In this document: positions 2,021-61,029 of the stretch, one piece after another
Layout: each line of letters opens with the position of its first letter
Numbering within the stretch: the first letter of the stretch is position 1
DNA from: an uncultured Solirubrobacterales bacterium
GTDB lineage: Bacteria > Actinomycetota > Thermoleophilia > Solirubrobacterales > Solirubrobacteraceae
Length of the DNA stretch: 64,000 nucleotides
Assembly: GCA_963706545.1 (NCBI GenBank)
Contig: OY970161.1
Location: 3,954,105 to 4,018,104 of the forward strand
Direction of reading: 5' to 3'
The notes under the pieces: generated by a model
The model's input: the letters and a program-made list of their open reading frames with translations, nothing else
What the model was told of the DNA's origin: nothing
The model's database searches: none
Translations under genes and position numbers: made by a program

Positions 2021-2065
2021 CCACTCTCTGTTTGGTTGGCTGGTTTCACCGGCACCGAATACGCC

Positions 2066-2096
2066 GGGTGGGACCGGCATCGTACCGGCCCCACCC
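2066..2096 (-). terminator. GC-rich hairpin between the small secreted gene and the propeller gene (copy 1)
   Basis: Imperfect inverted repeat gggtgggaccgg...ccggccccaccc with no U-tract. Equivalent hairpins occur in the other two copies. Confidence 0.5.
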
Positions 2097-2123
2097 AAAC
2101 ACCTAACTGTCTTCAGTCTACCG

Positions 2124-2768
2124 TCACGAGACCCGAATCCTACTGCCCGCTGTTGCCGATAACAGCGTGATTAGGCCCACTACTGCACCTGATTTTGCCC
2201 CTCCTTCGGTGCATTTCGCTTTGGGGCTATGTTCTTCTTCGAATTCGCTGACCACGACGCCTTTTACCGTTTCATTTGTTACCTTGGTGCTGGGCACAAG
2301 GCCGGCTTCTGCCAAACATTCATCCACTTTTGAACCGCCTATGGTTTTGCATTTTACGCGCCATCCCGGTTCACCGTTACCGGTCGTCTTGATATTGTCA
2401 CGTAGTTCTTTGCCGCTTTCGTACACTTCAGTTTGCCACGGCAGGCCTTTCGCTGTGATTTCTTCTACGTTTTCACAGACTTTCTTGGCTGCGCACTGCG
2501 AGGCCTGGACTTCGATGACTTCTACCCTGTCGAGACTTCCGGGGCCGATCGTCCCTTTCTCGGCGCCACCGCATTCGACTTCTGATGTGCCCAGGAGCGT
2601 TTTGGTGTCCTTCAATTTCAATGTCCCCGTGCCCATCACTTTTTCCGTCCCTTTCACTTCTGTTCCGTTTTGTTCCCACACGGGCGCTGCGGAGGCCGTA
2701 GCCGCTGTCGCCATGGCCATCGCCGCCAATGCCACGAGGCAAAGCCCCGCGATCCTAATGAACCTCAT
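2124..2768 (-). CDS. Small secreted protein with signal peptide and 6 conserved Cys (MRFIRI family, copy 1)
   Basis: 214 aa. Signal peptide ends ATASA, strong SD (aaaggagaag), paralogous to 8532..9155 and 14670..15299. Confidence 0.9.
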   Translation of the reverse strand: MRFIRIAGLCLVALAAMAMATAATASAAPVWEQNGTEVKGTEKVMGTGTLKLKDTKTLLGTSEVECGGAEKGTIGPGSLDRVEVIEVQASQCAAKKVCENVEEITAKGLPWQTEVYESGKELRDNIKTTGNGEPGWRVKCKTIGGSKVDECLAEAGLVPSTKVTNETVKGVVVSEFEEEHSPKAKCTEGGAKSGAVVGLITLLSATAGSRIRVS

Positions 2769-3219
2769 GTTTGCTTCTCCTTTGTATGTACTCGCTATTG
2801 ATGGATAATGGTCACCAGGAACACCGCATCGCCACGATTCAACGGCGCGACACCCTTGCCGACCAGTAATGCCTACTGCCTAACCTTCACACTTAGCGAC
2901 CCTTTGTCGAGTCACCTCGGCAACTCCCCAGCTGCTAACTCCCGGGAGGTTCATATGCATCGGCGCACAACGGTCAGGTCACAGGACCTTCCGGTCCTAT
3001 TGATCTTCGTCTTTTCTTCTGCCGGTGCATGATATTCGCTTCCCTTTATGTTTCGCAGCCTTGAAGCTGCCTGTACATGCCTGTACAACATGGCAGGTCT
3101 ACGAAGGCATTTCAACCCTTGTCTCCGACTCGACCGTGGCTGCGCCGGCGCGGGCCAAGAGGCCGCGAAAATGGTTTGAATACAGGGGATACGGCTCCTT
3201 CGGGCCTCCGGAGGCGCCC
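2769..3219. repeat. Conserved ~450 bp non-coding leader of the module (copy 1)
   Basis: Aligns by eye to 9156..9572 and 15300..15737. Confidence 0.85.
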
Positions 3220-8283: not shown

Positions 8284-8303
8284 TGGGTGGAGAGTATCTA
8301 CCT

Positions 8304-8422
8304 AAGGTCGCCGCAGGACACGCCTTCTGCAAGGTCTTCAAGCGCGAGGACGATCGATCACAGCATTGACGACCCGCAACTGGCCGATCAGCGCGACGAG
8401 TCGTACATACATTGGGTCCATC
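8304..8422 (-). pseudogene. Mosaic deletion scar of the propeller and large-protein genes (module copy 2)
   Basis: 8304-8347 matches 10053-10096, 8347-8382 matches 10370-10405, and 8384 onward matches 14522 onward. It translates as MDPMYVRLVALIG-QLRVVNAVIDRP-RA-stop. Confidence 0.85.
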
Positions 8423-8466
8423 AACTCCCTCTCCGATCGGCCGACCCCGTCGGCGTTCGATATGCC

Positions 8467-8496
8467 GGGCGGGGCCGCCTTACGCCGGCCCCGCCC
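8467..8496 (-). terminator. GC-rich hairpin downstream of the small secreted gene (copy 2)
   Basis: gggcggggccg-N8-cggccccgccc. Confidence 0.55.
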
Positions 8497-8531
8497 GAGA
8501 ACCTACAAAACCTGACTGCCTTAAACTACCG

Positions 8532-9155
8532 TCACGAAACCGAAATCACTTTGCCAATCGGTTCGGATAACGTCGTGATTATGCCTTCCACTTCGCCTGA
8601 TGCGTCCGCTCCCTCGGTGCAGTCCGCTTTCGATTTTGGGTTGAATGTGCCGAGCTCATTCGGTGTTACGTTCGTTTGCACCTCATCGCCTTCTTTCCCG
8701 GCTTCCGTCACACATTCATCGGTTTTTCTACCAGCGAGGGTTTTGCACGTAACGGACCAACCCGGCTCGCCTTTGATTTCTGAGATCTTGTTGAGTACCT
8801 TGCCTTCGGTTTCGTACAGTTCGGTTTGCCACGGAAGGCTCAGTGGCTTGACTGTTTCTACGTTTTCACAGACTCTGATCGGTTTGCAACTCGCAACAGT
8901 TATGGTTTCTACGCGGTCAATCTTCCCGGGGCCGATCGTTCCCGTAGTCGTACCACTGCACTCGACGGCGGATTCGCCAAGAGGTGTCAGGTTGTCGGCG
9001 AGTCTCAACGTCCCCGAACCCATCACTTTTTCCGTCCCTTTCACTTCTGTTCCATTAACCTCCCACACGGGCTGCGCGGAGGCCGTAGCCGCTGTCGCCA
9101 TGGCCATCGCCGCCAATGCCACGAGGCAAAGCCCCACGATCCTAATGAACCTCAT
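8532..9155 (-). CDS. Small 6-Cys secreted protein (copy 2)
   Basis: 207 aa, signal peptide, same SD; closest to 14670..15299. Confidence 0.9.
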   Translation of the reverse strand: MRFIRIVGLCLVALAAMAMATAATASAQPVWEVNGTEVKGTEKVMGSGTLRLADNLTPLGESAVECSGTTTGTIGPGKIDRVETITVASCKPIRVCENVETVKPLSLPWQTELYETEGKVLNKISEIKGEPGWSVTCKTLAGRKTDECVTEAGKEGDEVQTNVTPNELGTFNPKSKADCTEGADASGEVEGIITTLSEPIGKVISVS

Positions 9156-9572
9156 ATCTGCTTCTCCTTTGTATGCACTCGCTATTGATAAATATGGTCG
9201 TCACGAACACCGCGCCGCCACAATTCAACGGCGCGACACCCTTGCCGACCAGTAACACCTACTACCTAACCTTCACACTCAGCGACCCTTTGTCGAGTCA
9301 CCTCAGCAACTCCCCGACCACTGACTTCCCGGGGAGGTTCACATGCATCGGCGCACGACGGTCAGATCGCGGGACCTTCCGGTCCTATTGATCTTCGTCT
9401 TATCTTCTGCCGGTGCATGGTATTCGCTTCCTTGATGGTCTGTTAGCGCAGCCTTGAAGCTGCCTGTACAACATGACAGGTCCGCGAAGGCATATCAACC
9501 CTTGTCTTCGACTCCACCGCTGGCTGCGCCGGCGCGGGCCGAGAAGCCACGCAAATGGATCGAATACAGGGG
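9156..9572. repeat. Conserved non-coding leader (copy 2)
   Basis: Aligns to copies 1 and 3 up to gaatacagggg. Confidence 0.85.
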
Positions 9573-9601
9573 CATGCCCGGGAACCGCGCCTAAGGTGGG
9601 G

Positions 9602-9630
9602 GGCCTTGCGGCGCAATCGCGCCGCAGGCC
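9602..9630 (-). terminator. Hairpin after the large secreted protein gene
   Basis: ggcct-tgcggcgc-aatc-gcgccgca-ggcc, about 10 bp after the stop. Confidence 0.6.
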
Positions 9631-9640
9631 GGGTGGTCCC

Positions 9641-12514
9641 CTACTTCCTCCGCTTGCAGCCCGTGACCGTGATCTTTGTGCTCTTGTCGAGCACGGTGCC
9701 GTTCTGGGCTACGAATTCGGTTGGGATCTTCAGTTTGGCGTTGCAGAGGTTGCCGGTTGCGGCGAGGGCTGAGTTGGGGCCCTCGGGGAGTGTCAAGGTG
9801 AAGGTGCCCACGGGCACGTCGGGGACGGTCTTGAAGGTGGAGCTCGTGATACCGTGTTTGTTGATAAATGTTGCGCCGACCAGGTCGACTGTCACACCGT
9901 AGCCCTGCAGGACAACGATCAGGCTCGGGAACGCTTCGCCGCCGTGGCTGACGAAATAGGCAGGGCCTTCCAACGGGACCGGAAGGATCGGCGTCACGGC
10001 CTTCGCAGAGCCGACGACCGACGCGGCCGGGCAGTTCGCGGGGTTCGCTTCGAAGGTCGCCGCGGGACACGCCTTCTGCAAGGTCTTCAAGCGCGAAGGA
10101 AGCCGCTTAGGCAGTTCGACTTTGACCTTCGCGACGTTCGCCTCGCTGCCCTGCGGGGCCTTCGGGAAACTGAGCATCGCTGTCAGACTCGCACCGTCAA
10201 GACGACTTGTATGAGCCGAGGTCGAAACCGCGAACGCCGGTTTGAACGCCAGAGCAGCACAGTTAGTCACCTGGAAGTGATTGGAAACAGCCACACTCGC
10301 ACCTTCAGTATCGCTCAGCGTCCCGGTGACCGCTGTCGGTTCGCAGTCCGTCGGGTTGAACGTAAAACCAGGACGATCAATCACAGCATTGACGACCCGC
10401 AACTGCAACGGAATACCATCAAGCACCGTCGGAAGGGGGTCCGTCGTCACCGTCAACCGCGCAGTATGAGGATCGACAGCGATCGCCGCACGGACCACCA
10501 CCGTGCCCGCCCCGGTCGTACCGGAGAGGGTGTACGGGCCGGCCTTCGCGGGGACTACGATCGAGAGGCCGTAAGGTGCTCCCTTATAAGGCCCGGTGAT
10601 GAAGATCTGCCCGCCGGTCACGAGGAAGGGCTCGGCACCAGGCCCGGTCAAGACCTGGAAGTGGCCGATCAAGCTTGCCGCGCCGCACGTCCCCTGCGCC
10701 GCCTGCGGTTCACCGCAGAGCTTGACGCTCGACAACATGCCAGACAAACCCAGCGGCATCTTCAACTGCATCCCAGACAGGAAACCATCAGCGTCCGAGC
10801 GCCCGAAAGCGAGCGTAAGCGGGGTGAAAGCGCCGGCCTGGACATTCGTCGTCTCGGCCGTGAAGGACGGCTTGAACTGTGGGGGGCTGCAGCCGGTCAC
10901 TTCGAAGGCGCTGCTCGGCGTGGAGTCGATCACGAACGGCGAGCTCCACGGCGTCAGGTCGGCTTCGCTGACAGCCGGGCCGCAGGCCCGGGGGTTCGCG
11001 AGCGTCGCACGGGGACCACCGACCAGTTCCAGCTTGACGCTTTCGAACGGGAGCTGAGGGTCTTCTTCAAAGACAGTCGTGACACGACCAGTCGTCGGGT
11101 TGATCGAACCGGTGCCGGCGAGCTTGACAGTGATCCCGTCGCTGCCTTCCCCGATCGCCTGCAAGTAAAGACGGACCATCCGGCCGTCCTGAGCATCTTC
11201 AGGGGTACAAGGGTTACAGATCGGGGCGCCGAGAAAGACCGTGCCCCGCAGCGGCGCCGGAAGATCAGGCGTCGTTATACGAAGCTGACCAACCGTCGAA
11301 GACGGTTCACACGAGGCCGGGCTCGCCGACGTTGACCCGAACTCATCAGGAACTTCACGAGGATCCACACCAGGGTCGTCGTGGCAGACCCCCAACCCCT
11401 GCGCAGCAGAGGGAGAAATCACCATCCCTTCCGGGAGCGAGACCTTCACATCACGAACATCGGAGGTACCCAGGACTTCGGGGCTGTCGGGCTGCGGGAC
11501 GGCTAGTTCTACGCCGAGGCCGACCGGGGCACCGGCCAAGGAGGTGTCGGGCTGGACCGTCAGCGATGAGCCGAACGTCAGCTTTTCACAGCCGGTGACC
11601 GGTTCCATCGCCGGAGAGGATTCGGCGATCTTCCAGTTCGGATCGCCCTTCAGAGGGTTACCGTTCGCATCGAGCGCACCGGGATGAATCCAGGAATCGG
11701 TTTCGATCGTCGCCGTCAAGGGTTCGCCCGTGCACTCAGTCGGGAGACGGATAAAAGGGACCGGGGGAGCGCCACTTGACTCGCCGCCGCCCGGACAGGG
11801 TTCTTCAAAGGCCCGTCCCGGCGGTTCATCCGTGACCCATGCGCATTCCTCGCCGCGCTGGGCATCGTGGGAGGGGTTGGCCGGCACACCCCAAATCGTG
11901 ATCGACGCGGTCGTGACTTCGACCTCTGGGATGTCCGAGGAGGTCGCGCTCAACGTGTACCCTTCGCCGGTCCGCGCGCCCCCAGTGATCACGAAATCCA
12001 ACTGGTTATAGAAGCCAAACTCCGCAGGCCGACCGTTGAGCGGCGTGAGATTGTAAAGAGGGGTCTGCTCCAAGCTGTGGGACGGACTTGTGAGGATCGT
12101 TCCGACCTGGCTGCTCGGCGGGCAGCCGTGGCCTTCGCCCTGCGAGAAGACGGCGATCGGGCAGCGCGGTACCGCCTGCGGGTTGAAGACAAGCCCCGGG
12201 GGGAAGCTCACCCTGATGTCCTTCGGTTCTTCGACGGACACCATCACATGACCGCCGTTGCGGTTTAGGGCTTTATGGAGATTGAGATGGAAGGTCGTCG
12301 TCAGCTCATAGGGAGTGCCGCCGGCCTGGGTGTAGAAAGCGGTGCACGGCAGGCCGTTTTCGGAGCTTTCGTTAGCGCAGCTGGAGAGCTGGAAGCTCGC
12401 GATGCCGAACTGGGGTTCAGCGGCCGCTGCGCCGGCCGGTGCCGCCACTAGCAGCAGCCCAACCAACAACAGGAAGAGCAAGAGCGCCGGCCTCAACGGG
12501 ATATGAATCCTCAT
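9641..12514 (-). CDS. Large secreted Cys/Pro-rich protein (~957 aa) with four internal repeats
   Basis: ATG at 12514 (MRIHIPLRPALLLFLLLVGLLLVAAPAGAAA, signal peptide) overlaps the upstream stop (ATGA). The repeated motif V.LP.G...C occurs four times. Confidence 0.85.
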   Translation of the reverse strand: MRIHIPLRPALLLFLLLVGLLLVAAPAGAAAAEPQFGIASFQLSSCANESSENGLPCTAFYTQAGGTPYELTTTFHLNLHKALNRNGGHVMVSVEEPKDIRVSFPPGLVFNPQAVPRCPIAVFSQGEGHGCPPSSQVGTILTSPSHSLEQTPLYNLTPLNGRPAEFGFYNQLDFVITGGARTGEGYTLSATSSDIPEVEVTTASITIWGVPANPSHDAQRGEECAWVTDEPPGRAFEEPCPGGGESSGAPPVPFIRLPTECTGEPLTATIETDSWIHPGALDANGNPLKGDPNWKIAESSPAMEPVTGCEKLTFGSSLTVQPDTSLAGAPVGLGVELAVPQPDSPEVLGTSDVRDVKVSLPEGMVISPSAAQGLGVCHDDPGVDPREVPDEFGSTSASPASCEPSSTVGQLRITTPDLPAPLRGTVFLGAPICNPCTPEDAQDGRMVRLYLQAIGEGSDGITVKLAGTGSINPTTGRVTTVFEEDPQLPFESVKLELVGGPRATLANPRACGPAVSEADLTPWSSPFVIDSTPSSAFEVTGCSPPQFKPSFTAETTNVQAGAFTPLTLAFGRSDADGFLSGMQLKMPLGLSGMLSSVKLCGEPQAAQGTCGAASLIGHFQVLTGPGAEPFLVTGGQIFITGPYKGAPYGLSIVVPAKAGPYTLSGTTGAGTVVVRAAIAVDPHTARLTVTTDPLPTVLDGIPLQLRVVNAVIDRPGFTFNPTDCEPTAVTGTLSDTEGASVAVSNHFQVTNCAALAFKPAFAVSTSAHTSRLDGASLTAMLSFPKAPQGSEANVAKVKVELPKRLPSRLKTLQKACPAATFEANPANCPAASVVGSAKAVTPILPVPLEGPAYFVSHGGEAFPSLIVVLQGYGVTVDLVGATFINKHGITSSTFKTVPDVPVGTFTLTLPEGPNSALAATGNLCNAKLKIPTEFVAQNGTVLDKSTKITVTGCKRRK

Positions 12515-14562
12515 CGCTTCGTCCTCCCGCTCTTGCCGGCTCGCTTGGCCTTGGGCCTCCTGACGCATCTGCCCCTCCTCTTCATGTAGCCCTTCCCGCA
12601 ATGCCTCGGCTTCGCCTTCGGGGTACCCACGGGGGTCGGCACGGGTGGCTGTAGGTTCCCCAAGCCAGAGAACGTCGCGCTCCCGCTTTCGCCGAGCAGC
12701 GACGGCACGCTCGGCGGGCCCTGGCAGGAGTCGCCCTTGCACCCGCCCGCCGGGATTGGCACCGCGGGGAACCCGCCATCGATTCGCGCGTCGTAGAGGC
12801 TCTCCAGCCCGTCGGTGTCCTGCGGCAGGATGCCTTCCGTTGACGTGAAGAAGATGTCGCGGCCAGACGGTGTGATCGCCGGATGTTCGTCGGAGGTGAG
12901 CGAGTGCCCGGTCGAGATCAGGCTCACCTCTCCGTCGTGCCACTCGTAGATGTCGCTCGGGCCCAGCTGCGGCTGCAGGTCATTGACCGCGCGCGGCGAT
13001 AGCGCCCCCGAGGTGCTGAACACGACCGTCGAGCCGTCGTCGCTGACGGCGCGCGTCCTCATCTCGAACTCTTCCGCCTGGGAAAGGTCCCCTGTGCGTC
13101 CAAACTCGGGCATCGCTATGCTCGCGCCCCGGACGTTGCCTTCGCCGTTTTCGGCGTAGCCTTCTTCGCCGGTCGAGACGCGCACCAGCTTTCCGGTGTC
13201 GGCGTCGTACTCGAAGACCTGCTGGCCGCTGCTCGCGTCGCCGGGCGTGATCTTCGCCGTCGTCGCGAAGACGAAGAAGCGCCCCCCTTCGCAGCCCGCT
13301 TCCTTGGCTTCACCGAGTTCTTCGCTCGGACAACCGTTGACCTGAGCTTCGATTTCGCCTTCGACGACGTTGCTGCCGAGGCGTGCCCGCGCGATGAACG
13401 CGGCTTTCTTGGTTTCCGTGTCGTACACGTACAGGTTTTCCTCGCCTTTTTCGGCCTTTTCGCTGTTTTCGTTTTCGTTTGCGGCGAGAACGCCCGTGGA
13501 GAGGAAGTACAGGCGGGCACCGTCATCGCTGGAGCGCAGATAGGTGTTCGAGTCCCCGGCCGGAGCGATCGCCACCCGTTCACGTTCAACGACCGCTTCC
13601 TGCCCCGGTTCGCTGTCAATGAGGTCCATATACAGTTCGCCGCCGGCGCTCTTGAGGAAGACCTTCGCGCCGTCTTCGGAGGCCCCCTGAAAGAGCCCGC
13701 CGAGTTCAAGCGTCTTCGCCCCGTTCACGCGAACATACGACATGCCGGTTTCTTCGTACGTGAAGAATATCTCTGCTCCATCGTTAGAGATCGCGTGAAA
13801 TGCCGAATCCAGCTCCGCTTCGCCGCTGCCGAGTTCACCATTGAACGCCCTTTCCCCGGGAGGCGGTTCGATCGTCACTACGCGAAACACGGGCATCCGT
13901 TCACCGGCACCAGCCAGTTCGTCGAGCTCGTGATGAGAACCGCCGGCGGAGGGAACGACGATGTGTGCGAAATTCGGAGACTCGTCCACGGCCTGTCCGA
14001 CTCCACCGTTGTTATGATATTCCTGGATTTCCGTAAAGGTAAAATCCGGTGCGGCCTCCAAATCGTCGCTGACGAACAGACCGGCAGTTCCTTCCTGTGC
14101 GCCTGACAGGAACTGGACGCGCACCACCTGCTTCGTCAAGTCGAACGAGCTGGTCACGCCGCTGACCAGCCCCTGGAGCGCTGCCGGGACACCGACCCAC
14201 GACGTTGTCCAACCTTGCGTACTCCGCCGGGCGATGTAGCTGTTGAAGGCGTAGTCGCTACCGATGCCGGCGAACCCGCCGTCCGAGACGAATTCCGCCG
14301 CTTCTCCGCCGGGGGCCGCACCGTAGAAGTTCAGCACGCCGCTGTCCGCCGTGTCCGGCGGGCTGACCAGCTCATAAGCGCGACACTGCGGGAGCTGACT
14401 GGAGCGCGCTTCTGCGCGTAGCTGTTCCTCTTCCTTGCGCTTGGGTTCTTCCACCTTAGCGCAGGAGGATTCGGCGGCCTCCGCCGTACTCACAAACCCC
14501 ACGGCGCACACCAGCATCAGACCGATCAGCGCGACGAGTCGTACATACATTGGGTCCATCAA
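12511..14562 (-). CDS. Secreted beta-propeller-like (TolB/WD40-like) protein, module copy 3
   Basis: 683 aa, signal peptide, repeated S.DG..v.F blade motifs, C-terminal C..G......C motif followed by a Lys/Arg tail. Confidence 0.85.
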   Translation of the reverse strand: MMDPMYVRLVALIGLMLVCAVGFVSTAEAAESSCAKVEEPKRKEEEQLRAEARSSQLPQCRAYELVSPPDTADSGVLNFYGAAPGGEAAEFVSDGGFAGIGSDYAFNSYIARRSTQGWTTSWVGVPAALQGLVSGVTSSFDLTKQVVRVQFLSGAQEGTAGLFVSDDLEAAPDFTFTEIQEYHNNGGVGQAVDESPNFAHIVVPSAGGSHHELDELAGAGERMPVFRVVTIEPPPGERAFNGELGSGEAELDSAFHAISNDGAEIFFTYEETGMSYVRVNGAKTLELGGLFQGASEDGAKVFLKSAGGELYMDLIDSEPGQEAVVERERVAIAPAGDSNTYLRSSDDGARLYFLSTGVLAANENENSEKAEKGEENLYVYDTETKKAAFIARARLGSNVVEGEIEAQVNGCPSEELGEAKEAGCEGGRFFVFATTAKITPGDASSGQQVFEYDADTGKLVRVSTGEEGYAENGEGNVRGASIAMPEFGRTGDLSQAEEFEMRTRAVSDDGSTVVFSTSGALSPRAVNDLQPQLGPSDIYEWHDGEVSLISTGHSLTSDEHPAITPSGRDIFFTSTEGILPQDTDGLESLYDARIDGGFPAVPIPAGGCKGDSCQGPPSVPSLLGESGSATFSGLGNLQPPVPTPVGTPKAKPRHCGKGYMKRRGRCVRRPKAKRAGKSGRTKR

Positions 14563-14604
14563 CTCCCTCTCCGATCGGCCGACCCCGTCGGCATTCGATA
14601 TACC

Positions 14605-14634
14605 GGGCGGGGCCGGCTGACACCGACCCCGCCC
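14605..14634 (-). terminator. GC-rich hairpin downstream of the small secreted gene (copy 3)
   Basis: gggcggggccgg...ccgaccccgccc. Confidence 0.5.
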
Positions 14635-14669
14635 GAGAACCTACAACACCTGACTGCCTTAAACTACCG

Positions 14670-15299
14670 TCACGAAACCGAAATCACTTTGCCAATCGGT
14701 TCGGATAACGTCGTGATTATACCTTCCACCTTGCCTGCTTCTACCCCTCCTTCGGAGCAGTCCGCTTTCGATGTCGGGTTGAATGTGCCGGTCTCATTCG
14801 GTGTCACGTTCGCTTGCACCTCATTGCCTTCTTTCCCGGCTTCCGTTTCACATTTATCGGTTTTGATACCACCGATGGTTTTGCAGGTAACGGACCAACC
14901 CGGCTCCCCATTGCTAGGGATTTCTGAGATCTTGTTGAGTACTTTGCTCTCGGTTTCGTACAGTTCGGTTTGCCACGGAAGGTGCAGTGGCTTGACCGTT
15001 TCGACGTTTTCACAGACTTTGATCTGTTTGCAACTCGCAATAGTTATGGTTTCTACGCGGTCAATCTTCCCGGGGCCGATCGTTCCCGTACTCGTACCAC
15101 TACACTGGACGGCGGATTCGCCAAGGAGTGTTTTGGTGTCGGCGAGTCTCAACGTCCCCGTACCCATCACTTTTTCTGTCCCTTTCACTTCTGTTCCATT
15201 GACCTGCCACACGGGCTGCGCGGAGGCCGTAGCCGCTGTCGCCATGGCCATCGCCGCCAATGCCACGAGGCAAAGCCCCGCGATCCTAATAAACCTCAT
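14670..15299 (-). CDS. Small 6-Cys secreted protein (copy 3)
   Basis: 209 aa, signal peptide, SD aaaggagaag. Confidence 0.9.
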   Translation of the reverse strand: MRFIRIAGLCLVALAAMAMATAATASAQPVWQVNGTEVKGTEKVMGTGTLRLADTKTLLGESAVQCSGTSTGTIGPGKIDRVETITIASCKQIKVCENVETVKPLHLPWQTELYETESKVLNKISEIPSNGEPGWSVTCKTIGGIKTDKCETEAGKEGNEVQANVTPNETGTFNPTSKADCSEGGVEAGKVEGIITTLSEPIGKVISVS

Positions 15300-15737
15300 A
15301 TCTGCTTCTCCTTTGTATGCACTCGCTATTGATAAATATAGTCGTCACGAACACCACGCCGCCACGATTCAACGGCACGACACCCTTGCCGACCAGTAAT
15401 ACCTACTACCTAACCTTCACACATAGCGACCCTTTGTCGAGTCACCTCAGCAACTCCCCAACCACTGACTTCCCAGGGAGGTTCACATGCATCAGCGCAC
15501 GACGGTCAGGCCGCAGGACCTTTCCGGTCCTATTGATCTTCGTCTTATCTTCTGCCGATGCATGGTATTCGCTTCCTTGATGGTTGCTTGTGCAGCCTTG
15601 AAGCTGCCTGTACAACATGACAGGTCCGCAGAGTCGTATCAACCCTTGTCTCCGACTCAACCGCTGGCTGCACCGCGCGAGCCGAGAGGCCGCGACAATG
15701 CTTTGAATACAGGGGATACGGCCCTCCGGAGGCGCTC
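15300..15737. repeat. Conserved non-coding leader (copy 3)
   Basis: Aligns to copies 1 and 2 and abuts the gcvPB stop. Confidence 0.85.
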
Positions 15738-17272
15738 TTACGGAAGGGCCTGACGGATGACCGGCCGCTTCGCGGCCGTGACCTCGTCGAGACGACGCAC
15801 AGGGGTCGTGTGGGGGGCCGTTCGGGCGATCTCGGGGTCCGCAGCGGCCTCTCGGAGGATGGCGGCGATCGCGTCGGCGAAAGCGTCCAAGGTCTCCCGC
15901 GTCTCAGTCTCGGTCGGCTCGACCATCAGCGCCTCCTCAACGAGCAGCGGAAAGTAGACGGTAGGCGGGTGAAAGCCGAAGTCAAGCAGGCGCTTGGCGA
16001 GATCGAGCGTCCGGATCTGAAGCTGGCGCTTCATCGGGCCCCCGGAGAGCACGAACTCGTGCATGCAGAGCTCGCCGTATGCGAGCGGCAGGTACTCGGC
16101 CACCCCGTGCTCCCGCAGCCGCGCAAGCAGGTAGTTGGCGTTCAGTACGGCGGTCTCGGAGGCGTCGCGCAGCCCCTCGGCGCCGAGCGAGCAGATGTAG
16201 GCGTACGCCCGCACGAAGCAGCCGTAGTTGCCCTGGAAGCCGCGCAGGCGCCCGATCGACTTGGACCCGACTGGAGGGTGGCGCAGGCGGCCGGAGGCCG
16301 CCGAGCCGGACCCCTCCTCTTCAATCGACCCGGAGCCAAAATCGAGGTCGAAGGCGCCGTCCTCGCGCCTGACGACGGACGGCACGGGCAGGAACGGCGC
16401 GATGCGCTCTGAGACCGCGATCGGCCCGGAGCCAGGGCCACCGCCGCCGTGGGGCTGGGTGAAGGACTTGTGGAGGTTGAAGTGGACGATGTCGAAGCCC
16501 ATGTCCCCGGGCCGCGAGTGCCCCATCACGGCGTTGAGGTTGGCACCGTCGTAGTAGAGGACGGCGCCGGCGTCGTGGACGAGACGGGCGATCTCCTGGA
16601 TGTGGGGGTCGAACAGCCCGAGCGTGTTGGGGTTGGTGAGCATCAGGCAGGCGACGTCGGGCCCGACCTTCGCGCGCAGGTCCTCGAGGTCGATGCCCCC
16701 GGCGGCGTCGGTAGCGAGCGGGACGACCTCCAGGCCGGCCATCGTGACGGTCGCGGGGTTGGTCCCGTGGGCGGTGTCGGGCGCGAGCACCTTGGTTCGC
16801 CGCTCCCCCCGGTCCTCGTGAAAGGCACGCGCGAGCAACACGCCGGCGAGCTCGCCGTGCGAGCCCGCGGAGGGCTGCAGACAGACATGCGGCAACCCCG
16901 CGATCTCAGCGAGCGCCCCCTGCAGACGCCACATCAGCTCGAGCGCCCCCTGCGCGCGCGCGGGGTCCTGCAGCGGGTGCAGCCGTGCGTGGCCTGGCAA
17001 CGCGGCGACGCGCTCGTGCAAGCGCGGGTTGTGCTTCATCGTGCACGACCCGAGCGGGTAGAAGCCAGAGTCCAGATCGAAGTTACGCTTGGAGAGCCGC
17101 ACATAGTGGCGCACGAGCTCAGGCTCTGACACCTCCGGCAGCCGCGGCCCCTCGGCGCGAAGCAGGTGCGCGGGCAGCAGCTCCCCGGGATCGACCGCGG
17201 GCACGTCGAGCTCCGGGCAGTGAAAAGCGCGACGTCCCGGAGCGCCCCGCTCGAAGATCGTGAGCGTATCGG

Positions 17273-17276
<4 letters not shown>
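15738..17276 (-). CDS. gcvPB: Glycine dehydrogenase (decarboxylating) subunit 2
   Basis: FYPLGSCTMKHNP, YYDGANLNA, HFNLHKSF, PHGGGGPG, HPPTVYFPL. Confidence 0.97.
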
Positions 17277-38034: not shown

Positions 38035-39009
38035 TCATCCCGCGCCTCCCTGGTTCCCCGGGTTCCCCGGCTTCTCTGCCAGCTTCCTCGCGGCGCGCAG
38101 CCGCGCCGAGGCCGCACGCGGGTTGTGCGCGAGCTCGCCCGCGGAGGCCGTGATCGCGCGGCGCGTGAGCAGCGCCGCCTGGGGCTCACGCCCGCAGGCA
38201 CACACGGGCAGGTCGGGCGGGCAGATACAGCCCCGGGCGCGCTCGGCGAGGAAGCGCTTCACGCGCCGGTCCTCCAGCGAGTGGAAGGAGATCCCGGCGA
38301 GCACCCCGCCCTCGCACAGCAGCTCCCACGCCAGTGGCAGCCCGCGGTCGAGCTGGCCGAGCTCGTCGTTGACGGCGATCCGCAGCGCCTGAAAGACCCG
38401 CTTGGCGGGGTGCCCGCCGGCGAAGCGCGCGGGGGTGGGGATGGCAGTGTTGACGATCTCCACGAGCTCGTGCGTGGTCTCGATCGGCGCCCGTTCGCGG
38501 CGGCGCACGATCGCGCGGGCGATCGCGCCCGCGTGGCGCTCCTCGCCGAGCTCGCGCATCATCGCCGCCAGGCGGCGCTGCTCCCAGGTGGCGAGCACCT
38601 CGCGGGCGTCGAGCTCCTGCTCGGGATCCATGCGCATATCGAGCGGCGCGTCGTAGGAGTAGGAGAAGCCGCGCTCGCGGGTGTCCACCTGCATCGAGGA
38701 CATCCCCAGGTCGAAGTACGCCACGTCCGCACGCACCCCCTCGCTCGCGAGCAGTTCCAGCGCTTCGGCATACCCGCTGTGGATGAAGCGCACCGCGCAC
38801 GGCACCTCCTCGGCGAGCTCCGCAAAGCGCTCCTCGGCCTCGGGGTCGCGGTCGATCGCCACCAGCATCCCCTCCGCGCCCAGGCGCTCGGCCACCAGGC
38901 GAGCATGACCGCCGCCGCCGAAGGTGCAGTCCACCGCGATCTGCCCCGGATGAGGATCGAGCACGCCGATCAGCTCGCCAGCCAGCACCGGGATATGGAT
39001 GCTTGTCAT
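38035..39009 (-). CDS. rsmH: 16S rRNA C1402 methyltransferase RsmH
   Basis: HIPVL, DCTFGGGGHA, DLGMSSMQ, RGFSY, PLDMRMD, FQALRIAVN, SFHSLEDR. Confidence 0.98.
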   Translation of the reverse strand: MTSIHIPVLAGELIGVLDPHPGQIAVDCTFGGGGHARLVAERLGAEGMLVAIDRDPEAEERFAELAEEVPCAVRFIHSGYAEALELLASEGVRADVAYFDLGMSSMQVDTRERGFSYSYDAPLDMRMDPEQELDAREVLATWEQRRLAAMMRELGEERHAGAIARAIVRRRERAPIETTHELVEIVNTAIPTPARFAGGHPAKRVFQALRIAVNDELGQLDRGLPLAWELLCEGGVLAGISFHSLEDRRVKRFLAERARGCICPPDLPVCACGREPQAALLTRRAITASAGELAHNPRAASARLRAARKLAEKPGNPGNQGGAG

Positions 39010-39060
39010 GTCGATAGTGCCTAGCACGAGACGAGAGGTCTCCGCCTCATCCTGGGCATG

Positions 39061-43522: not shown

Positions 43523-43644
43523 CAGCCCGGAGCGTATACGCGGACGGCCCGTGCAAGTTCCCATTCATGCCCCCCACGCAGGCAGGAGCCGGGCTTATGA
43601 TTGCGACGGCTCGGGACCCGACACGACCTCCCGGCACTTACGTC

Positions 43645-44130
43645 ATGGACAAGACACGCCGCGGAAACTACGACTCGGGAGAGGACTTCGTCCTCGAATA
43701 CGGGGAGCTGCGCTTCACCTTCAACGAGGAGGACTTCGCCGAGCGCTGCGAGCAGGCCGCGCTGAAGGTGGGCTTCGTCGGGGGCCGGCTCGGGGAGGAC
43801 GAGCTCGAAGACCTCGTCAACCTCGCGGTCAACGGCGAGATCCACGACCCGGCCTCGGCGCTGGGGGAACACGTCAACGAGTGCTGGGCCGAGCTGGTGG
43901 GTCCGGCGGAGCGCTCACTAGTGCACTGGTTGCGCCGCCTCGTATTCCGTGGCGCGTGGCTCGACCAGCGCGTCAACGAGGGCGAGCTCGGCGTGGCCTT
44001 CGTCGAGGAGACCTGCAGCTTCGCCTACGTGCAGCCCGCCGGCGGACGCGATGGCGATCCATCCCGCGGTGGCGAGCCGATCGAGCTCTCGCCCGAGCCC
44101 TCCTGGGGCCGCGTGGCCTACCGGCGCTGA
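43645..44130 (+). CDS. Hypothetical acidic protein
   Basis: Open frame with genome-typical codon use and a TATGAT -10 box upstream; start could be 43567. No family recognised. Confidence 0.7.
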   Translation: MDKTRRGNYDSGEDFVLEYGELRFTFNEEDFAERCEQAALKVGFVGGRLGEDELEDLVNLAVNGEIHDPASALGEHVNECWAELVGPAERSLVHWLRRLVFRGAWLDQRVNEGELGVAFVEETCSFAYVQPAGGRDGDPSRGGEPIELSPEPSWGRVAYRR

Positions 44131-44131
44131 G

Positions 44132-45424
44132 TCAGCCGGCTACAGCGGCGGCGCGGGCCTCGGTGATCGCGCGGGCGCCGTCCTCCCCGACGAGCAGCTC
44201 GGGGCGCACGGCGCCGCTGCTGGCGAGGTCGAGCGCCGGCAGGCGCCCGGTGGAGGTCAGCGTGACGTCGAGCGCGATCACGGTGCTCTCGCCCCCAAAC
44301 GGGCGGGCCGCTGTGGCGATCACCGTCAGCGAGCCCCCCTCGGCGAGGTTGCGGGCGCCGGCGAGGACCCTGCGTGCCGCGTGGGGGTGCAGGCCGTCGA
44401 GCGAGTCGACCACCACCACCACGTCCCCACCGCGGGCGGCAACGCGCTTGGCGGTGTCCACGACGTGTTCCACGGTCTGACCCTGAAGGTCGGCGGAGGC
44501 CGCGAGGTCGAGCGCCGCGGCGGGCGCCACAGGCCCCTCGCGCCAGGCCGCAATCTCCTCGGGACGGACGCCCGCGAGCACGAGCATCACCTCCAAGCCC
44601 TCGCGCCCGGCCAGAGCACCAAGCAGACGCCGCAGGGTCTCGGTCTTGCCGGAGCGGGCCGCCCCCACGATCGCCACGCGCGAGCCGCGGCCGATCGGGG
44701 TGAGCCATTCGATCGCCTTCAACGTGGGGTCCTCGGCGTCGAGCTCGAGGCGCTCGCTCGGGTAGGCGGCGGCGAGGTCCTCGTAGCGGGTGCCCTCCGC
44801 CACAGACTCCGCGGAGGCGCCGTTGATCGTGTCCACGCGCGCCAGCGAGGGGTAGCGCTCGGACTGGCGCGGCGTGCGCAGCGGGCCGCTCACGCGGTCC
44901 CCGGAGACCAGTTCGCAGCGGCGCACCTGCGCGGCGGAGATGTAGAGGTCCTCGTCAGAGGCCTCCGGCGGAGAGACGCGCAGGAAGGCGGAGCCGTTGC
45001 CGAGCAGCTCGACCACGCCCTCGACGACGCGTTCCTCGCGACTCTCGCCGCCACGGGCGCCCCGCTCTGCAGGGCGTCGGGCGGGCTCCTCCTTGGCCGC
45101 TCGCTGCTCGGCGTCCGGCTCCTGCTCCTCGGCGGACGCTTTGCCCCGGCGTGTACGCGTGGGACGCCGCGGGCGCACGGTGCGCCGGCCGGACTCCGGC
45201 TCCGAGCGGTCGGACTCCTCCCCAGGCTCCTCCGCGGGCGCAGCGGACGCTCCGCGGTCTCCGTCGGCCTGCGTGCCTCCGTCGGCGCCGGAGCGCTCGA
45301 GGATCGCGTCAACCAGCTCCGCCTTGCGCAGACGGCGGAAGCCGTCGAGGCCGAGCTGATCGGCGATCGCGTGCAGGTCTGAGAGCGAGCTCGCGTCAAG
45401 CTCGGAGTGCTCGAGTACAGCCAT
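44132..45424 (-). CDS. Rho-like protein with an intact RNA-binding module and a degenerate ATPase/translocase domain
   Basis: LSDLHAIA N-terminal bundle, EGVVELLGNGSAFLR / DLYIS..QVRR OB-fold, PIGRGSR, GAARSGKT, VRPEE, VVDS, ARNLAEGGSLTVIAT; SD ggggagg. Confidence 0.88.
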   Translation of the reverse strand: MAVLEHSELDASSLSDLHAIADQLGLDGFRRLRKAELVDAILERSGADGGTQADGDRGASAAPAEEPGEESDRSEPESGRRTVRPRRPTRTRRGKASAEEQEPDAEQRAAKEEPARRPAERGARGGESREERVVEGVVELLGNGSAFLRVSPPEASDEDLYISAAQVRRCELVSGDRVSGPLRTPRQSERYPSLARVDTINGASAESVAEGTRYEDLAAAYPSERLELDAEDPTLKAIEWLTPIGRGSRVAIVGAARSGKTETLRRLLGALAGREGLEVMLVLAGVRPEEIAAWREGPVAPAAALDLAASADLQGQTVEHVVDTAKRVAARGGDVVVVVDSLDGLHPHAARRVLAGARNLAEGGSLTVIATAARPFGGESTVIALDVTLTSTGRLPALDLASSGAVRPELLVGEDGARAITEARAAAVAG

Positions 45425-45547
45425 GGTGGTCCTCCCCTTGTCGGTGTGTGTGGGCGGTTGGCGTCCGGTCGCGTTGGCCAGCGGCCGGCACCCGTGAGGC
45501 ATGGGCCTCAGTGCACAGGGCAGCTTACGGCATACCGCACGACGCCC

Positions 45548-58623: not shown

Positions 58624-59539
58624 CCGTGGCAGTCACCGCGACGGCGAAACGGTCGCGCAGCGCCGCTTCGTCGAGGGCGTGCGCGGCCAGGGCCACGCCG
58701 GCGGCGTCGGTGCCGGTGAGGACCCATTCGGGGTCCCCTTCGCCGGCGCGGGTGGCGGCGATCAGTCCGGCGCTGCCTGTGAGTGTGCGCACGGTGGCAC
58801 CCGAGGCGTCGAGCAGCGCGAGCGCGCGCCCCGAGGGGGCTACGCGCGCGTACACCCCGCTCGCGCGGGGGCCGCGTTCGAGCGACTGCGAGTTGAAGTC
58901 GCCACGCACCTGCGGCCACGTGCCGACGAGCAGGCGCAGCGTGTCGGGCTCCCCGGCGGGCGCCGGCGCGGCGAGCGCAAAGCGCACCCCCGCGGCACGC
59001 AGGTGGGCGCGAACCGTGAGGCAGGGGTTGCCTTCGGGCTGCGTGCATTCCACGCGAACCGGCTGGCGCAGCCCTTCGAGCCCGTACAGGAACGGCTCGG
59101 GGTAGGAGCCGACGACGGCCGGTATTTCATCGGTCTGGCTCCAGTCGTGCAGGTCCCACCACACGCGGTCCCCCGGGTGCACGTTCGTCTCGGCCGCGCC
59201 CTTGGACGCCTGCACGCCGTTGACGTAGTAAAACCAGTCGGCCGGTTCCCCGCCTTCGGAGCCGCCGGAGTGCCCCGCGATGCTCTCCACGAAACCGCCG
59301 CCGTAGCGGGTGCTGACGGCGGCGTTGCGCTCCAGCAGGCTCATCACCGTCTCCTGGCCCTGCACGCGGGGGGCGCGCAGGGCGAGCACGGGCTGCACCC
59401 CGAAGTCGCGCGTGACGTCCAGGCGCACCCCGCCGGGCGTGGGCCCCGCACCGAGGCCGCAGCCGGCGAGCAGGACGGCGGCCGGTGCGGCGAGCCACAC
59501 GCGCCACCGACCGCCGCCCCGGTGTCTCCTACTTGACAT
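58583..59539 (-). CDS. DUF4430 (transcobalamin beta-domain-like) lipoprotein
   Basis: VLLAGC lipobox; TVMSLL..., YGGGFVESIAG, DWFYYVNGV...G......PGDRVWW. Confidence 0.8.
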   Translation of the reverse strand: MSSRRHRGGGRWRVWLAAPAAVLLAGCGLGAGPTPGGVRLDVTRDFGVQPVLALRAPRVQGQETVMSLLERNAAVSTRYGGGFVESIAGHSGGSEGGEPADWFYYVNGVQASKGAAETNVHPGDRVWWDLHDWSQTDEIPAVVGSYPEPFLYGLEGLRQPVRVECTQPEGNPCLTVRAHLRAAGVRFALAAPAPAGEPDTLRLLVGTWPQVRGDFNSQSLERGPRASGVYARVAPSGRALALLDASGATVRTLTGSAGLIAATRAGEGDPEWVLTGTDAAGVALAAHALDEAALRDRFAVAVTATGAVLPLPQPSPSP

Positions 59540-60812
59540 AGAAGACGACGTGACTCACTCCGTCCGCGAGCTGTGTGGCGTGACCCGCATCGTCCAAGGC
59601 CTCGACGTCGTAGACGTACCGACCCGCGGGCAGCCGGGCCGGGAGCAGGTAGCTGAACGAGGTCGTGTCGGCCACGTCGAAGAAGCGTGTCGTGTGGCAG
59701 CCGGCACGCACGAAGGCTCCCCTGCGCCCGCTGAACGCGAAGCAGCGGTGGTGGACGCTGCGCGTGAGCGCGATGCGCACCTCGTGGAGCGTGTCCCCGG
59801 CGGGGATTTCGACGCTTCCTCCGAGGATGCGAGGAGCCGCGCGACGGGAGTAGACGCGACCACTCACGACTCCGCCCGCACGGGCCACCTCCGGAGGCGG
59901 CGGAGGCCCGGTGCTGGGGCCCAGTGGACCGCCGCAGGAGGACGTTGCCGCACAGAGGACGCACGTGGACGCCGTTGCACAGGCGACCGTGGTTCCGCAG
60001 GTGCCGTCGTTGCCGTTGTGGACGCACACGACCAAGCCACCCGAGCGCACTGATTCGGCCTGTGTGGCCTTGAGCGTCACGGTCCCCGTGTGGGCGAGCG
60101 CGATCGTGGCGTTGCCGTTCGCGTCGGTCGTGGGGCTGGCGGGGATCGGGGTCGTGACGCCCGCGAACACTTCGCCGATCGCGGCGCCCGCGATCGGCTG
60201 GCCGGTCTGCCCGTCGACGACGTGCACGGAGAAGGGCGTGCCGGCGTCGACGCTCGCGGGACCGGTCAGGCTCAGCAGGTGGTGCAGGTTGAAGTAGTTG
60301 TAGGCCCACAGCACTTCGCTGCCGGGGGCGAGTGCGATCTGGCAGCCACCCACGGGCGCGGTCGTGTCGTTGACTGCATAGCCCCACGAGTCGTAGGGGG
60401 GTGACGTTTCGTTTTCGTCTGAGCCGACCTGAGTGACGAGGAAGTCCCCCGGATTTTCGTTTTCTTTGGCGCCCGAGCCGAACCATTCGGCGTTGAAGGC
60501 AAGCCCGTTCGCACGCGCCGCGTCGCGCAGCGCTGTGGTCGGCGTACCGCTGGCGCTGCCACCGTTGGCTTCGCGCCCACCGAAGCCGTTTTCCGAGTAG
60601 TCGCACGGGTGGGGACCTTTGCTGGAGAGCGTTTCGAACGTTTCGCCCTGGGTCGCGATTTCTCCTTCGAAGAGCGTCTCGGTCGGACCCTCGACGCGCA
60701 GCTTGACTGTGACCGGCGCCGCAAGCGCGGTCGCGCACGAGACCAGCACTGCAAGGAGACCAATGAGGACGCCGGCGAGCGTCGGGCGGGTACGAGGAGC
60801 GATGACGAGCAT
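59529..60812 (-). CDS. Secreted protein with a DUF4430-like N-terminal domain and Ig-like C-terminal domains
   Basis: Signal peptide, V.LRVEG..ETLFEG, SWGYAVND..A.VGGC...L.PG.EVLWAY; first gene after the riboswitch. Confidence 0.7.
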   Translation of the reverse strand: MLVIAPRTRPTLAGVLIGLLAVLVSCATALAAPVTVKLRVEGPTETLFEGEIATQGETFETLSSKGPHPCDYSENGFGGREANGGSASGTPTTALRDAARANGLAFNAEWFGSGAKENENPGDFLVTQVGSDENETSPPYDSWGYAVNDTTAPVGGCQIALAPGSEVLWAYNYFNLHHLLSLTGPASVDAGTPFSVHVVDGQTGQPIAGAAIGEVFAGVTTPIPASPTTDANGNATIALAHTGTVTLKATQAESVRSGGLVVCVHNGNDGTCGTTVACATASTCVLCAATSSCGGPLGPSTGPPPPPEVARAGGVVSGRVYSRRAAPRILGGSVEIPAGDTLHEVRIALTRSVHHRCFAFSGRRGAFVRAGCHTTRFFDVADTTSFSYLLPARLPAGRYVYDVEALDDAGHATQLADGVSHVVFYVK

Positions 60813-60854
60813 GGAGCCAACCCCTTTCCACGAGGGCTTGTGGGCTTGCGGCCG

Positions 60855-61020
60855 GAGGCAGGTCTCCTGGCTCCCGGGCCTACCCCTCGCGCCTTCCCGA
60901 TGGCCGACGGCCGATCAGTGGCTCGCGCTTCGACGCGCGTAGCGGGGGGCATCCCCGGTCACAGTGGCGGGTCCGCGCCGGACTCTCACCGGCTTCCCTC
61001 GACCACCGACCGTATGAACG
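60855..61020 (-). ncRNA. Cobalamin riboswitch
   Basis: Minus strand reads agggaagccggtgagagtccggcgcggacccgccactgt ... gccactg ... gggaagg ... gagccaggagacctgcc (B12 box). Confidence 0.95.
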
Positions 61021-61029
61021 GGACAGATA

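Follow-up and report, generated by a model that had tools for sequence, protein, structure and literature searches.

Rho, which acts as a factor for terminating transcription, is regarded as a near-universal and often essential ring motor, and the share that translocation has in termination is still debated. In Rho enzymology glutamate 211 is the catalytic base and arginine 366 the finger, and RNA is coupled to hydrolysis through a secondary site made up of the Q- and R-loops (E. coli numbering is used throughout, with an E. coli Rho reference sequence identical to that of 1pv4). We describe here a Rho-like gene at positions 44132 to 45424, on the minus strand, of a 64,000-nucleotide stretch of DNA (the window; contig OY970161.1 of assembly GCA_963706545.1) from an uncultured bacterium of the Solirubrobacterales. 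Throughout this abundant soil order purifying selection acts on a Rho whose catalytic and RNA-gripping parts have been precisely lost, and the protein retains the RNA-binding head of Rho.

Proteins that almost certainly belong to the same family were reported by Moreira et al. 2024 (NAR 52:8979, PMC11347177), who analysed 2730 genomes, took a functional Rho to be one with RNA-binding and ATPase domains, and searched again, in six frames with domain models, those genomes that lacked a complete Rho. In C. woesei and B. soli no Rho ATPase domain was detected, six-frame hmmsearch included, and these species have only 'Rho-like' proteins, defined as having Rho_N and RNA-binding domains and an undetectable Rho ATPase domain. 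The same study found second rho genes in 62 Actinomycetota genomes, and these second copies ('Group B') lack the N-terminal domain and keep the catalytic residues. Both C. woesei and B. soli belong to the Solirubrobacterales, the order of all of the best relatives of the window protein, which itself fits the 'Rho-like' definition, as Rho_N and Rho_RNA_bind are detected and the ATPase domain falls below the model cutoffs. The occurrence of 'Rho-like' proteins and the lack of a functional Rho in two Solirubrobacterales species are therefore already published. The main text of that paper treats these species as being without functional Rho and makes no mention of a degenerate RecA-like domain that has been kept; what we add to it is a complete motor-dead RecA-like domain from which the pore loops are cleanly excised, the occurrence of the gene under purifying selection in hundreds of species, and an inversion of constraint between the head and the motor.

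The enclosing open reading frame (ORF) extends from 44132 to 45502 on the minus strand, and we place the start at the ATG at 45424, with a product beginning MAVLEHSELD, in agreement with the N-termini of more than 70 orthologs (M(A/T/P)VLERSEL). The gene and the segments of its product, all on the minus strand, are as follows.

44132 to 45424, minus strand: complete Rho-like coding sequence, 430 amino acids plus a TGA stop codon (44132 to 44134)
45431 to 45437, minus strand: Shine-Dalgarno sequence GGGGAGG with a 6-nucleotide spacer to the ATG, as read from the sequence
45293 to 45403, minus strand: Rho_N helical bundle, residues 8–44 (Pfam PF07498, E = 1.3e-8; predicted local distance difference test score, pLDDT, about 95 in the AlphaFold2 model)
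45035 to 45286, minus strand: disordered acidic/basic insert, residues 47–130 (pLDDT below 50 at residues 49–116)
45146 to 45187, minus strand: conserved Arg-rich motif RRTVRPRRPTRTRR within the insert, residues 80–93
44810 to 45025, minus strand: OB-fold primary RNA-binding domain, residues 134–205 (Pfam PF07497, Rho_RNA_bind, E = 6.5e-20)
44210 to 44719, minus strand: degenerate RecA-like (ATPase-like) domain, residues 236–405 (partial ATP-synt_ab match; pLDDT about 88–95)
44642 to 44665, minus strand: Walker A motif (P-loop) GAARSGKT, with the equivalents of K184 and T185 present and K181 replaced by Arg
44555 to 44578, minus strand: LAGVRPEE in place of LIDERPEE, with D210 changed to G and the catalytic E211 to V, and R212, P213, E214 and E215 retained
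44402 to 44422, minus strand: Walker B strand VVVVVDS, with the D265 equivalent retained
44378 to 44404, minus strand: junction of a 22-residue deletion right after DS, by which R269 is lost together with the entire Q-loop (K283, T286)
44282 to 44308, minus strand: junction of a 13-residue deletion after IATAARPFGGE, by which the R-loop K326 and EEFKGTG are gone
44192 to 44218, minus strand: SGAVRPELL in place of SGTRKEELL, with the Arg finger R366 changed to V and K367 to R
44135 to 44191, minus strand: short C-terminal helix that ends about 29 residues before that of E. coli Rho in the alignments, with all orthologs stopping at the same point

To determine which of these features characterize the family, residues were counted in an alignment of 128 family sequences with E. 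coli Rho and 30 canonical Rho proteins of the class Nitriliruptoria. The seven primary-binding-site residues F64, R66, D78, Y80, E108, R109 and Y110 are present in all 128 sequences, in keeping with a preliminary description of this DNA, made from the sequence alone, which held that the RNA-binding head is kept. The nucleotide site is retained in part: K184 and the Walker B aspartate D265 are invariant, position 185 is a threonine in 117 sequences and a serine in 11, K181 has become an arginine in 118, and R212 to E215 are kept in all 128, with a glycine at position 210 in 126. The GGSLT and ARN motifs of the RecA-like domain are also retained. The catalytic residues are not: position 211 is a valine in 71 sequences, an alanine in 41 and an isoleucine in nine (121 of the 128 together) and a glutamate in none, and position 366 is a valine in 67, a leucine in 57 and an isoleucine in three (127 of 128) and never an arginine. 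The adjacent position 367 is basic, with 82 arginines and 45 lysines, and we note that arginines stand one position past two of those lost, R353 being replaced by G with V354 becoming R, and R366 by V with K367 becoming R. The deletion that removes the Q-loop and R269 and the one that removes the R-loop are both found in 128 of 128 sequences relative to E. coli and canonical Nitriliruptoria Rho, and all of the canonical residues are present in each of the 30 Nitriliruptoria sequences in the same alignment.

The motor thus appears to be lost throughout the family, as the preliminary description had proposed for this one protein, and its reading of the individual motifs stands up well against E. 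coli Rho: Walker A (GAARSGKT) and Walker B are kept, LIDERPEE has become LAGVRPEE with the loss of Glu211, SGTRKEELL has become SGAVRPELL with an altered Arg finger, and the C-terminus is short. Its estimates of about 20 residues deleted after DS and about 12 after IATA are close to the measured 22 and 13, and the alignment restores neither the glutamate nor the loops. The acidic/basic insertion that it described is likewise present (16 R, 15 E, 14 A and 10 G among its 84 residues), at the site where actinobacterial Rho has its 'Type 2' insert. This segment accounts for most of the spread in ortholog length (412–549 residues). In the family alignment (A2) R92 of its Arg-rich motif is invariant, and R85, R86, R87 and R90 are at least 90% conserved.

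Curated models do not accept the window protein as a Rho, since its scores lie below the cutoffs of both NCBIfam Rho equivalogs (NF006886, 177 bits against a cutoff of 315; TIGR00767, 169 against 509). The Pfam ATP-synt_ab match covers residues 235–342, extends no further than the first half of the profile, and at 27.3 bits falls short of the cutoff of 29.5. The model for the short second form, NF041509 (paralog_Rho2), gives 125.8 bits against a cutoff of 628, and unlike that form the window protein has Rho_N and has lost the catalytic residues. In phmmer searches of PDB the matches are all Rho proteins (E about 1e-35 to 1e-37), and the HMMER alignments to PDB Rho are interrupted exactly at the missing loops. 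In NCBI records 'Rho termination factor N-terminal domain-containing protein' is the name given to relatives; the annotation 'transcription termination factor Rho' found at JGI and in older NCBI records overstates the sequence support.

Selection on the gene was examined with orthologs from 80 syntenic loci together with the window. Among these are 71 full-length coding sequences, none with an internal stop codon; of the other ten loci, nine failed only the start-codon pattern, with a start readable in seven of them, and one (L042) is cut by a contig end. Against its three closest orthologs the window gene has a ratio of nonsynonymous to synonymous substitution (dN/dS, or omega; Nei-Gojobori) of 0.066, 0.076 and 0.11. 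Over moderately diverged pairs omega is 0.15 for the OB fold, 0.16 for Rho_N and 0.26 for the ATPase-like domain; it is about 0.67 for the disordered insert, a segment in which the alignment is unreliable. The view that the gene is not undergoing random decay is borne out by the intact orthologs, by omega values of 0.07–0.26, and by the strong Shine-Dalgarno sequence.

The distribution of constraint along the protein is inverted relative to that of real Rho. Within the family mean identity is 88% in the OB fold and 77% in the ATPase core, whereas within canonical Nitriliruptoria Rho it is 83% and 90%, respectively. Compared to E. coli Rho the family is 40% identical in the OB fold and 33% in the ATPase core, the corresponding values for canonical Nitriliruptoria Rho being 44% and 68%. 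The RNA-binding head has therefore stayed in the Rho constraint regime throughout; in the motor domain a burst of change was followed by a new constraint that is weaker but real.

With a shallow, family-only alignment the AlphaFold2 prediction was poor (pLDDT 55), and with an alignment of 88 sequences that included canonical Rho it reached a pLDDT of 80.5, with the folded parts at about 88–95. In this model the Q-loop junction is a short strand-to-helix turn (pLDDT about 95), and the R-loop junction is a hairpin that joins strands 365–372 and 381–385. The top 50 matches in a Foldseek search against PDB are all Rho chains, including 3ice_A (root-mean-square deviation 3.1 Å over 337 columns), 6xav_A (TM score 0.73) and M. 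tuberculosis 7oqh (TM score 0.70). The predicted structure thus shows a Rho fold for the window protein, in accord with the sequence evidence.

Comparison with other known systems helps to define what has changed. Canonical E. coli Rho (1pv4/3ice; TIGR00767) has the same domain order and fold and shares the key OB residues, the P-loop GK(T/S), the Walker B aspartate, R212, ARN and GGSLT; the window protein differs in lacking Glu211, Arg366, R269, the Q-loop, the R-loop and about 29 C-terminal residues, and in an ATPase core only 33% identical. The actinobacterial 'Type 2' Rho proteins (M. tuberculosis 7oqh; Nitriliruptoria P0242) have a similarly long, disordered Arg/Glu/Gly-rich insert and the same placement of Rho_N and OB, and are the closest canonical relatives both by sequence (37%) and by fold (TM score 0.70 to 7oqh), so that they represent the probable ancestor type; however, they keep all of the catalytic and pore-loop residues (30 of 30) and are conserved most strongly in the ATPase core. 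A non-catalytic P-loop subunit has a precedent in the alpha subunit of F1-ATPase (ATP-synt_ab superfamily), which keeps its P-loop and binds nucleotide without the catalytic carboxylate, although F1-alpha sits in a hetero-hexamer with the catalytic beta subunit and here no catalytic partner is evident. The 'Group B / Type 4' Rho proteins and paralog_Rho2 (NF041509) are likewise Rho-derived, of atypical architecture, and found in Actinomycetota among others, but they are a mirror image of the present family: the N-terminal domain is missing from them, the catalytic residues are retained, and a full Rho is present beside them. The 'Rho-like' proteins of Moreira et al. match ours in order and in Pfam architecture with a sub-threshold ATPase domain. 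Finally, PMC13613805 mentions RHON1 of Arabidopsis plastids, which is reported to act in transcription termination, and cyanobacterial DUF4912 'Rho-like' proteins; these too have part of the Rho N-terminal region without a motor, but they contain Rho_N only, with neither an OB fold nor a RecA-like domain.

The family is widespread. At least 120 close relatives (65–98% identity) were found in the protein search, all with the same features, and relatives are carried by at least 333 GTDB species representatives (one genome per GTDB species), with thousands of clusters in metagenomes. The best 80 of the 333 are all metagenome-assembled genomes (MAGs) of Solirubrobacterales or Solirubrobacteraceae, many of them closed chromosomes of 3.7–4.4 Mb. 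Matches to a 58%-identical query came from uncultured Solirubrobacteraceae MAGs, and the named isolates (Conexibacter, Baekduia) were absent among them. The sequencing runs that hold the gene are exclusively soil and peat metagenomes. When 1.84 billion cluster representatives were searched exhaustively with HMMER, the loop-less type was met at identities as low as about 36% (P0140, P0168 and P0249 are examples). Its more distant members lie at 36–50% identity. Some distant members with the same deletions (P0210, P0213 and P0248) have also lost the Walker A lysine, and so the clade tolerates complete loss of the nucleotide site.

Several variants of the motor region were seen in passing. In orthologs P0003, P0075, P0090, P0096 and L015 a Gly/Asp/Ser-rich insertion of 15–60 residues (for example GRNGDASRRRVSPGFGREG) separates the helix that follows the P-loop from the next strand; it is absent from the window protein, and its presence in some orthologs indicates that the ATPase-like domain tolerates large insertions. 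Metagenomes also contain Rho-like families that are degenerate in other ways. One, represented by P0244, P0245 and P0259, keeps DERPEE and has lost the Walker A lysine (GAT/GRT) and about 17 Q-loop residues. Another (P0247, P0253 and P0262) is about 410 residues long, has no insert, keeps a sequence of Q-loop length, and has either E211 changed to A or K184 changed to Q or R. Rho may have given rise to motor-dead derivatives on several occasions.

We consider it reasonably probable that the window protein descends from Rho, does not translocate, and binds RNA and probably nucleotide as well. Its ancestor would have been an insert-bearing actinobacterial Rho, and during vertical descent the RecA motor would have been disabled and then re-stabilised. 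Because E211, R366, R269 and both channel loops are absent, RNA-stimulated ATP hydrolysis and translocation appear impossible in the light of Rho enzymology, and efficient ATP hydrolysis, RNA threading and translocation would all lie beyond this protein. From its sequence we predict that it probably still binds pyrimidine-rich (C/U) single-stranded RNA, as does Rho, and the Arg-rich motif of the disordered insert probably aids this binding. Nucleotide may be a structural or regulatory ligand, by analogy with the non-catalytic alpha subunit of F1-ATPase, and oligomerisation may persist. The role would then be independent of translocation: the protein might, for example, occupy nascent untranslated RNA or serve as its chaperone, or it might act on RNA polymerase through contacts that involve no pulling. 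A bolder form of this idea is that the protein is the sole Rho homolog of the order and acts as a translocation-independent Rho, which would silence or terminate untranslated transcription, or act on RNA polymerase, through its RNA-binding head, its Arg-rich insert and a nucleotide-gated ring that does not hydrolyse. We regard this as doubtful; if it were true, the motor would be dispensable for a core Rho function.

Whether the gene is an addition to a canonical rho or the lineage's own rho bears directly on what it can do. The preliminary description took it to be a paralog, and hence a candidate for poisoning or tuning true Rho hexamers, and in this respect we depart from it. An extra motor-dead copy beside a canonical Rho, regulating by shielding rut sites or through poisoned hetero-hexamers, would be in keeping with the motor-dead features themselves, with the second rho genes known in 62 Actinomycetota genomes (PMC11347177), and with the fact that the genome has been seen only over the 64-kb window. 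However, two Solirubrobacterales genomes have been searched genome-wide without any Rho ATPase domain being found (PMC11347177), the known 'Group B' second copies are of the opposite type, and the combination of Rho_N, insert and OB fold is the primary actinobacterial Rho architecture. No canonical Rho attributable to the Solirubrobacterales surfaced in the search of cluster representatives; the nearest canonical Rho there is P0242, 37% identical over the OB and ATPase domains, which groups with Egicoccus and Nitriliruptor of the class Nitriliruptoria, and none of the 120 P0242 relatives listed was traced to the chromosomes that carry the Rho-like gene. A tblastn search with E. coli and canonical actinobacterial Rho, covering the window and roughly 1 Mb of sequence around the gene in 81 loci, returned the Rho-like gene alone, which with so little sequence is a weak test. 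We therefore judge an additional copy to be distinctly improbable. The findings of Moreira et al. (PMC11347177), the actinobacterial insert architecture, and the position of the nearest canonical Rho in the Nitriliruptoria make it most likely that this is the lineage's own rho, degenerated, and we think it highly likely that the Rho-like protein is the sole Rho homolog in its genome, in which case it does not modulate a true Rho. Termination and RNA surveillance would then run without a Rho motor in these bacteria, and the protein would show what the Rho head domain is capable of alone.

A further question is whether the protein is still an active, if unorthodox, Rho, in which substitute residues hydrolyse ATP and drive either a ring motor or an ATP-driven clamp with a remodelled, narrower channel. 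The invariance of the P-loop K/T, the Walker B aspartate, R212, E214, E215 and GGSLT speaks for this, as do the purifying selection on the ATPase-like domain (omega 0.26) and the deletions, which are structurally clean in the predicted model; the arginines that reappear one position after both of those lost could also be invoked, in which case the basic residue 367 might serve as the finger and the base might be another acidic residue. Yet the position of the catalytic glutamate is Val, Ala or Ile in nearly all of the sequences and Glu in none, both of the RNA-contacting pore loops and R269 are missing throughout, the distant members P0210, P0213 and P0248 have the same deletions and no Walker A lysine, and the ATPase core has diverged from E. 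coli about twice as much as a canonical actinobacterial core has (33% versus 68% identity), so that we find an active motor improbable. At the other extreme, the loss of many catalytic residues, and the greater omega of the ATPase-like domain relative to the OB fold, might suggest a functionless, pseudogene-like remnant of rho. Selection and conservation together effectively refute this: the reading frame is intact, with start, stop and strong Shine-Dalgarno sequence conserved in all complete loci, omega is 0.07–0.26, mean identity is 77–88% over at least 128 sequences, the gene is present in at least 333 species, and the model is confidently folded.

A number of points weigh against our account of a non-translocating Rho that is alone in its genome. 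The absence of a canonical rho is deduced from published work on two related species, with 64 kb of a 4.08-Mb genome seen here, and although the C. woesei and B. soli proteins almost certainly belong to the same family, they have been likened to it by order and Pfam architecture. The strict conservation of the P-loop, the Walker B aspartate, R212 and a basic residue at 367 implies that the nucleotide site still matters, and to judge from these residues some residual or unconventional ATPase activity is possible; M. tuberculosis Rho is itself reported to function despite poor ATPase activity. The AlphaFold2 model leans towards the Rho fold because its alignment contained canonical Rho. The sole evidence of expression is a 161-nucleotide contig from one soil metatranscriptome run, about 96% identical to 44810–44970, which is a weak sign that the gene of a close relative is transcribed, and DNA carry-over is possible.

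The surroundings of the gene are well conserved, with the order glpD-folP-rhoL-(convergent ORF)-permease/Usp-DUF3352-mraZ-rsmH kept in about 80 of 81 loci. This neighbourhood (folP-like, glpD, permease/Usp and the conserved ORF) gives no hint as to function, the sole PADLOC match being a weak one to the P-loop only, and Rfam and tRNA scans showed nothing relevant close to the Rho-like gene. A scan for terminators and promoters between 38 and 54 kb of the window found four terminator-like sites, where 3.2 were expected, and no promoters; there is no enrichment, and the scan is uninformative on the regulation of the Rho-like gene or on compensation for an absent Rho. The convergent ORF (about 161–187 residues) lies at 43567–44130 on the plus strand, with a likely start at M27 (about 43645), and its stop codon is one base apart from that of the Rho-like gene. 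Neither Pfam nor PADLOC gives a match to this ORF, which adjoins the Rho-like gene in 80 of 81 loci and at 78–100% identity is more conserved than the Rho-like gene itself.

Elsewhere in the window, in the region of about 15700–39000, there is a division and cell-wall cluster that has the Rho-like gene immediately upstream of it, with rsmH (MraW) at 38035–39027 on the minus strand; mraZ was seen in the syntenic locus L001. A glycine dehydrogenase gene is located at 15738–17276, and a cobalamin riboswitch (RF00174, 77 bits) at 60840–61022 on the minus strand, upstream of an ORF at 59529–60812 on the same strand. Two stretches, at about 8300–15700 and 1–3200, have a G+C content of 0.59–0.64, as against about 0.72 elsewhere in the window. 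They contain large ORFs, among them two on the minus strand at 9641–12943 (1100 residues) and 12511–14562 (683 residues), and smaller ones with no Pfam match, and these stretches may be acquired islands.

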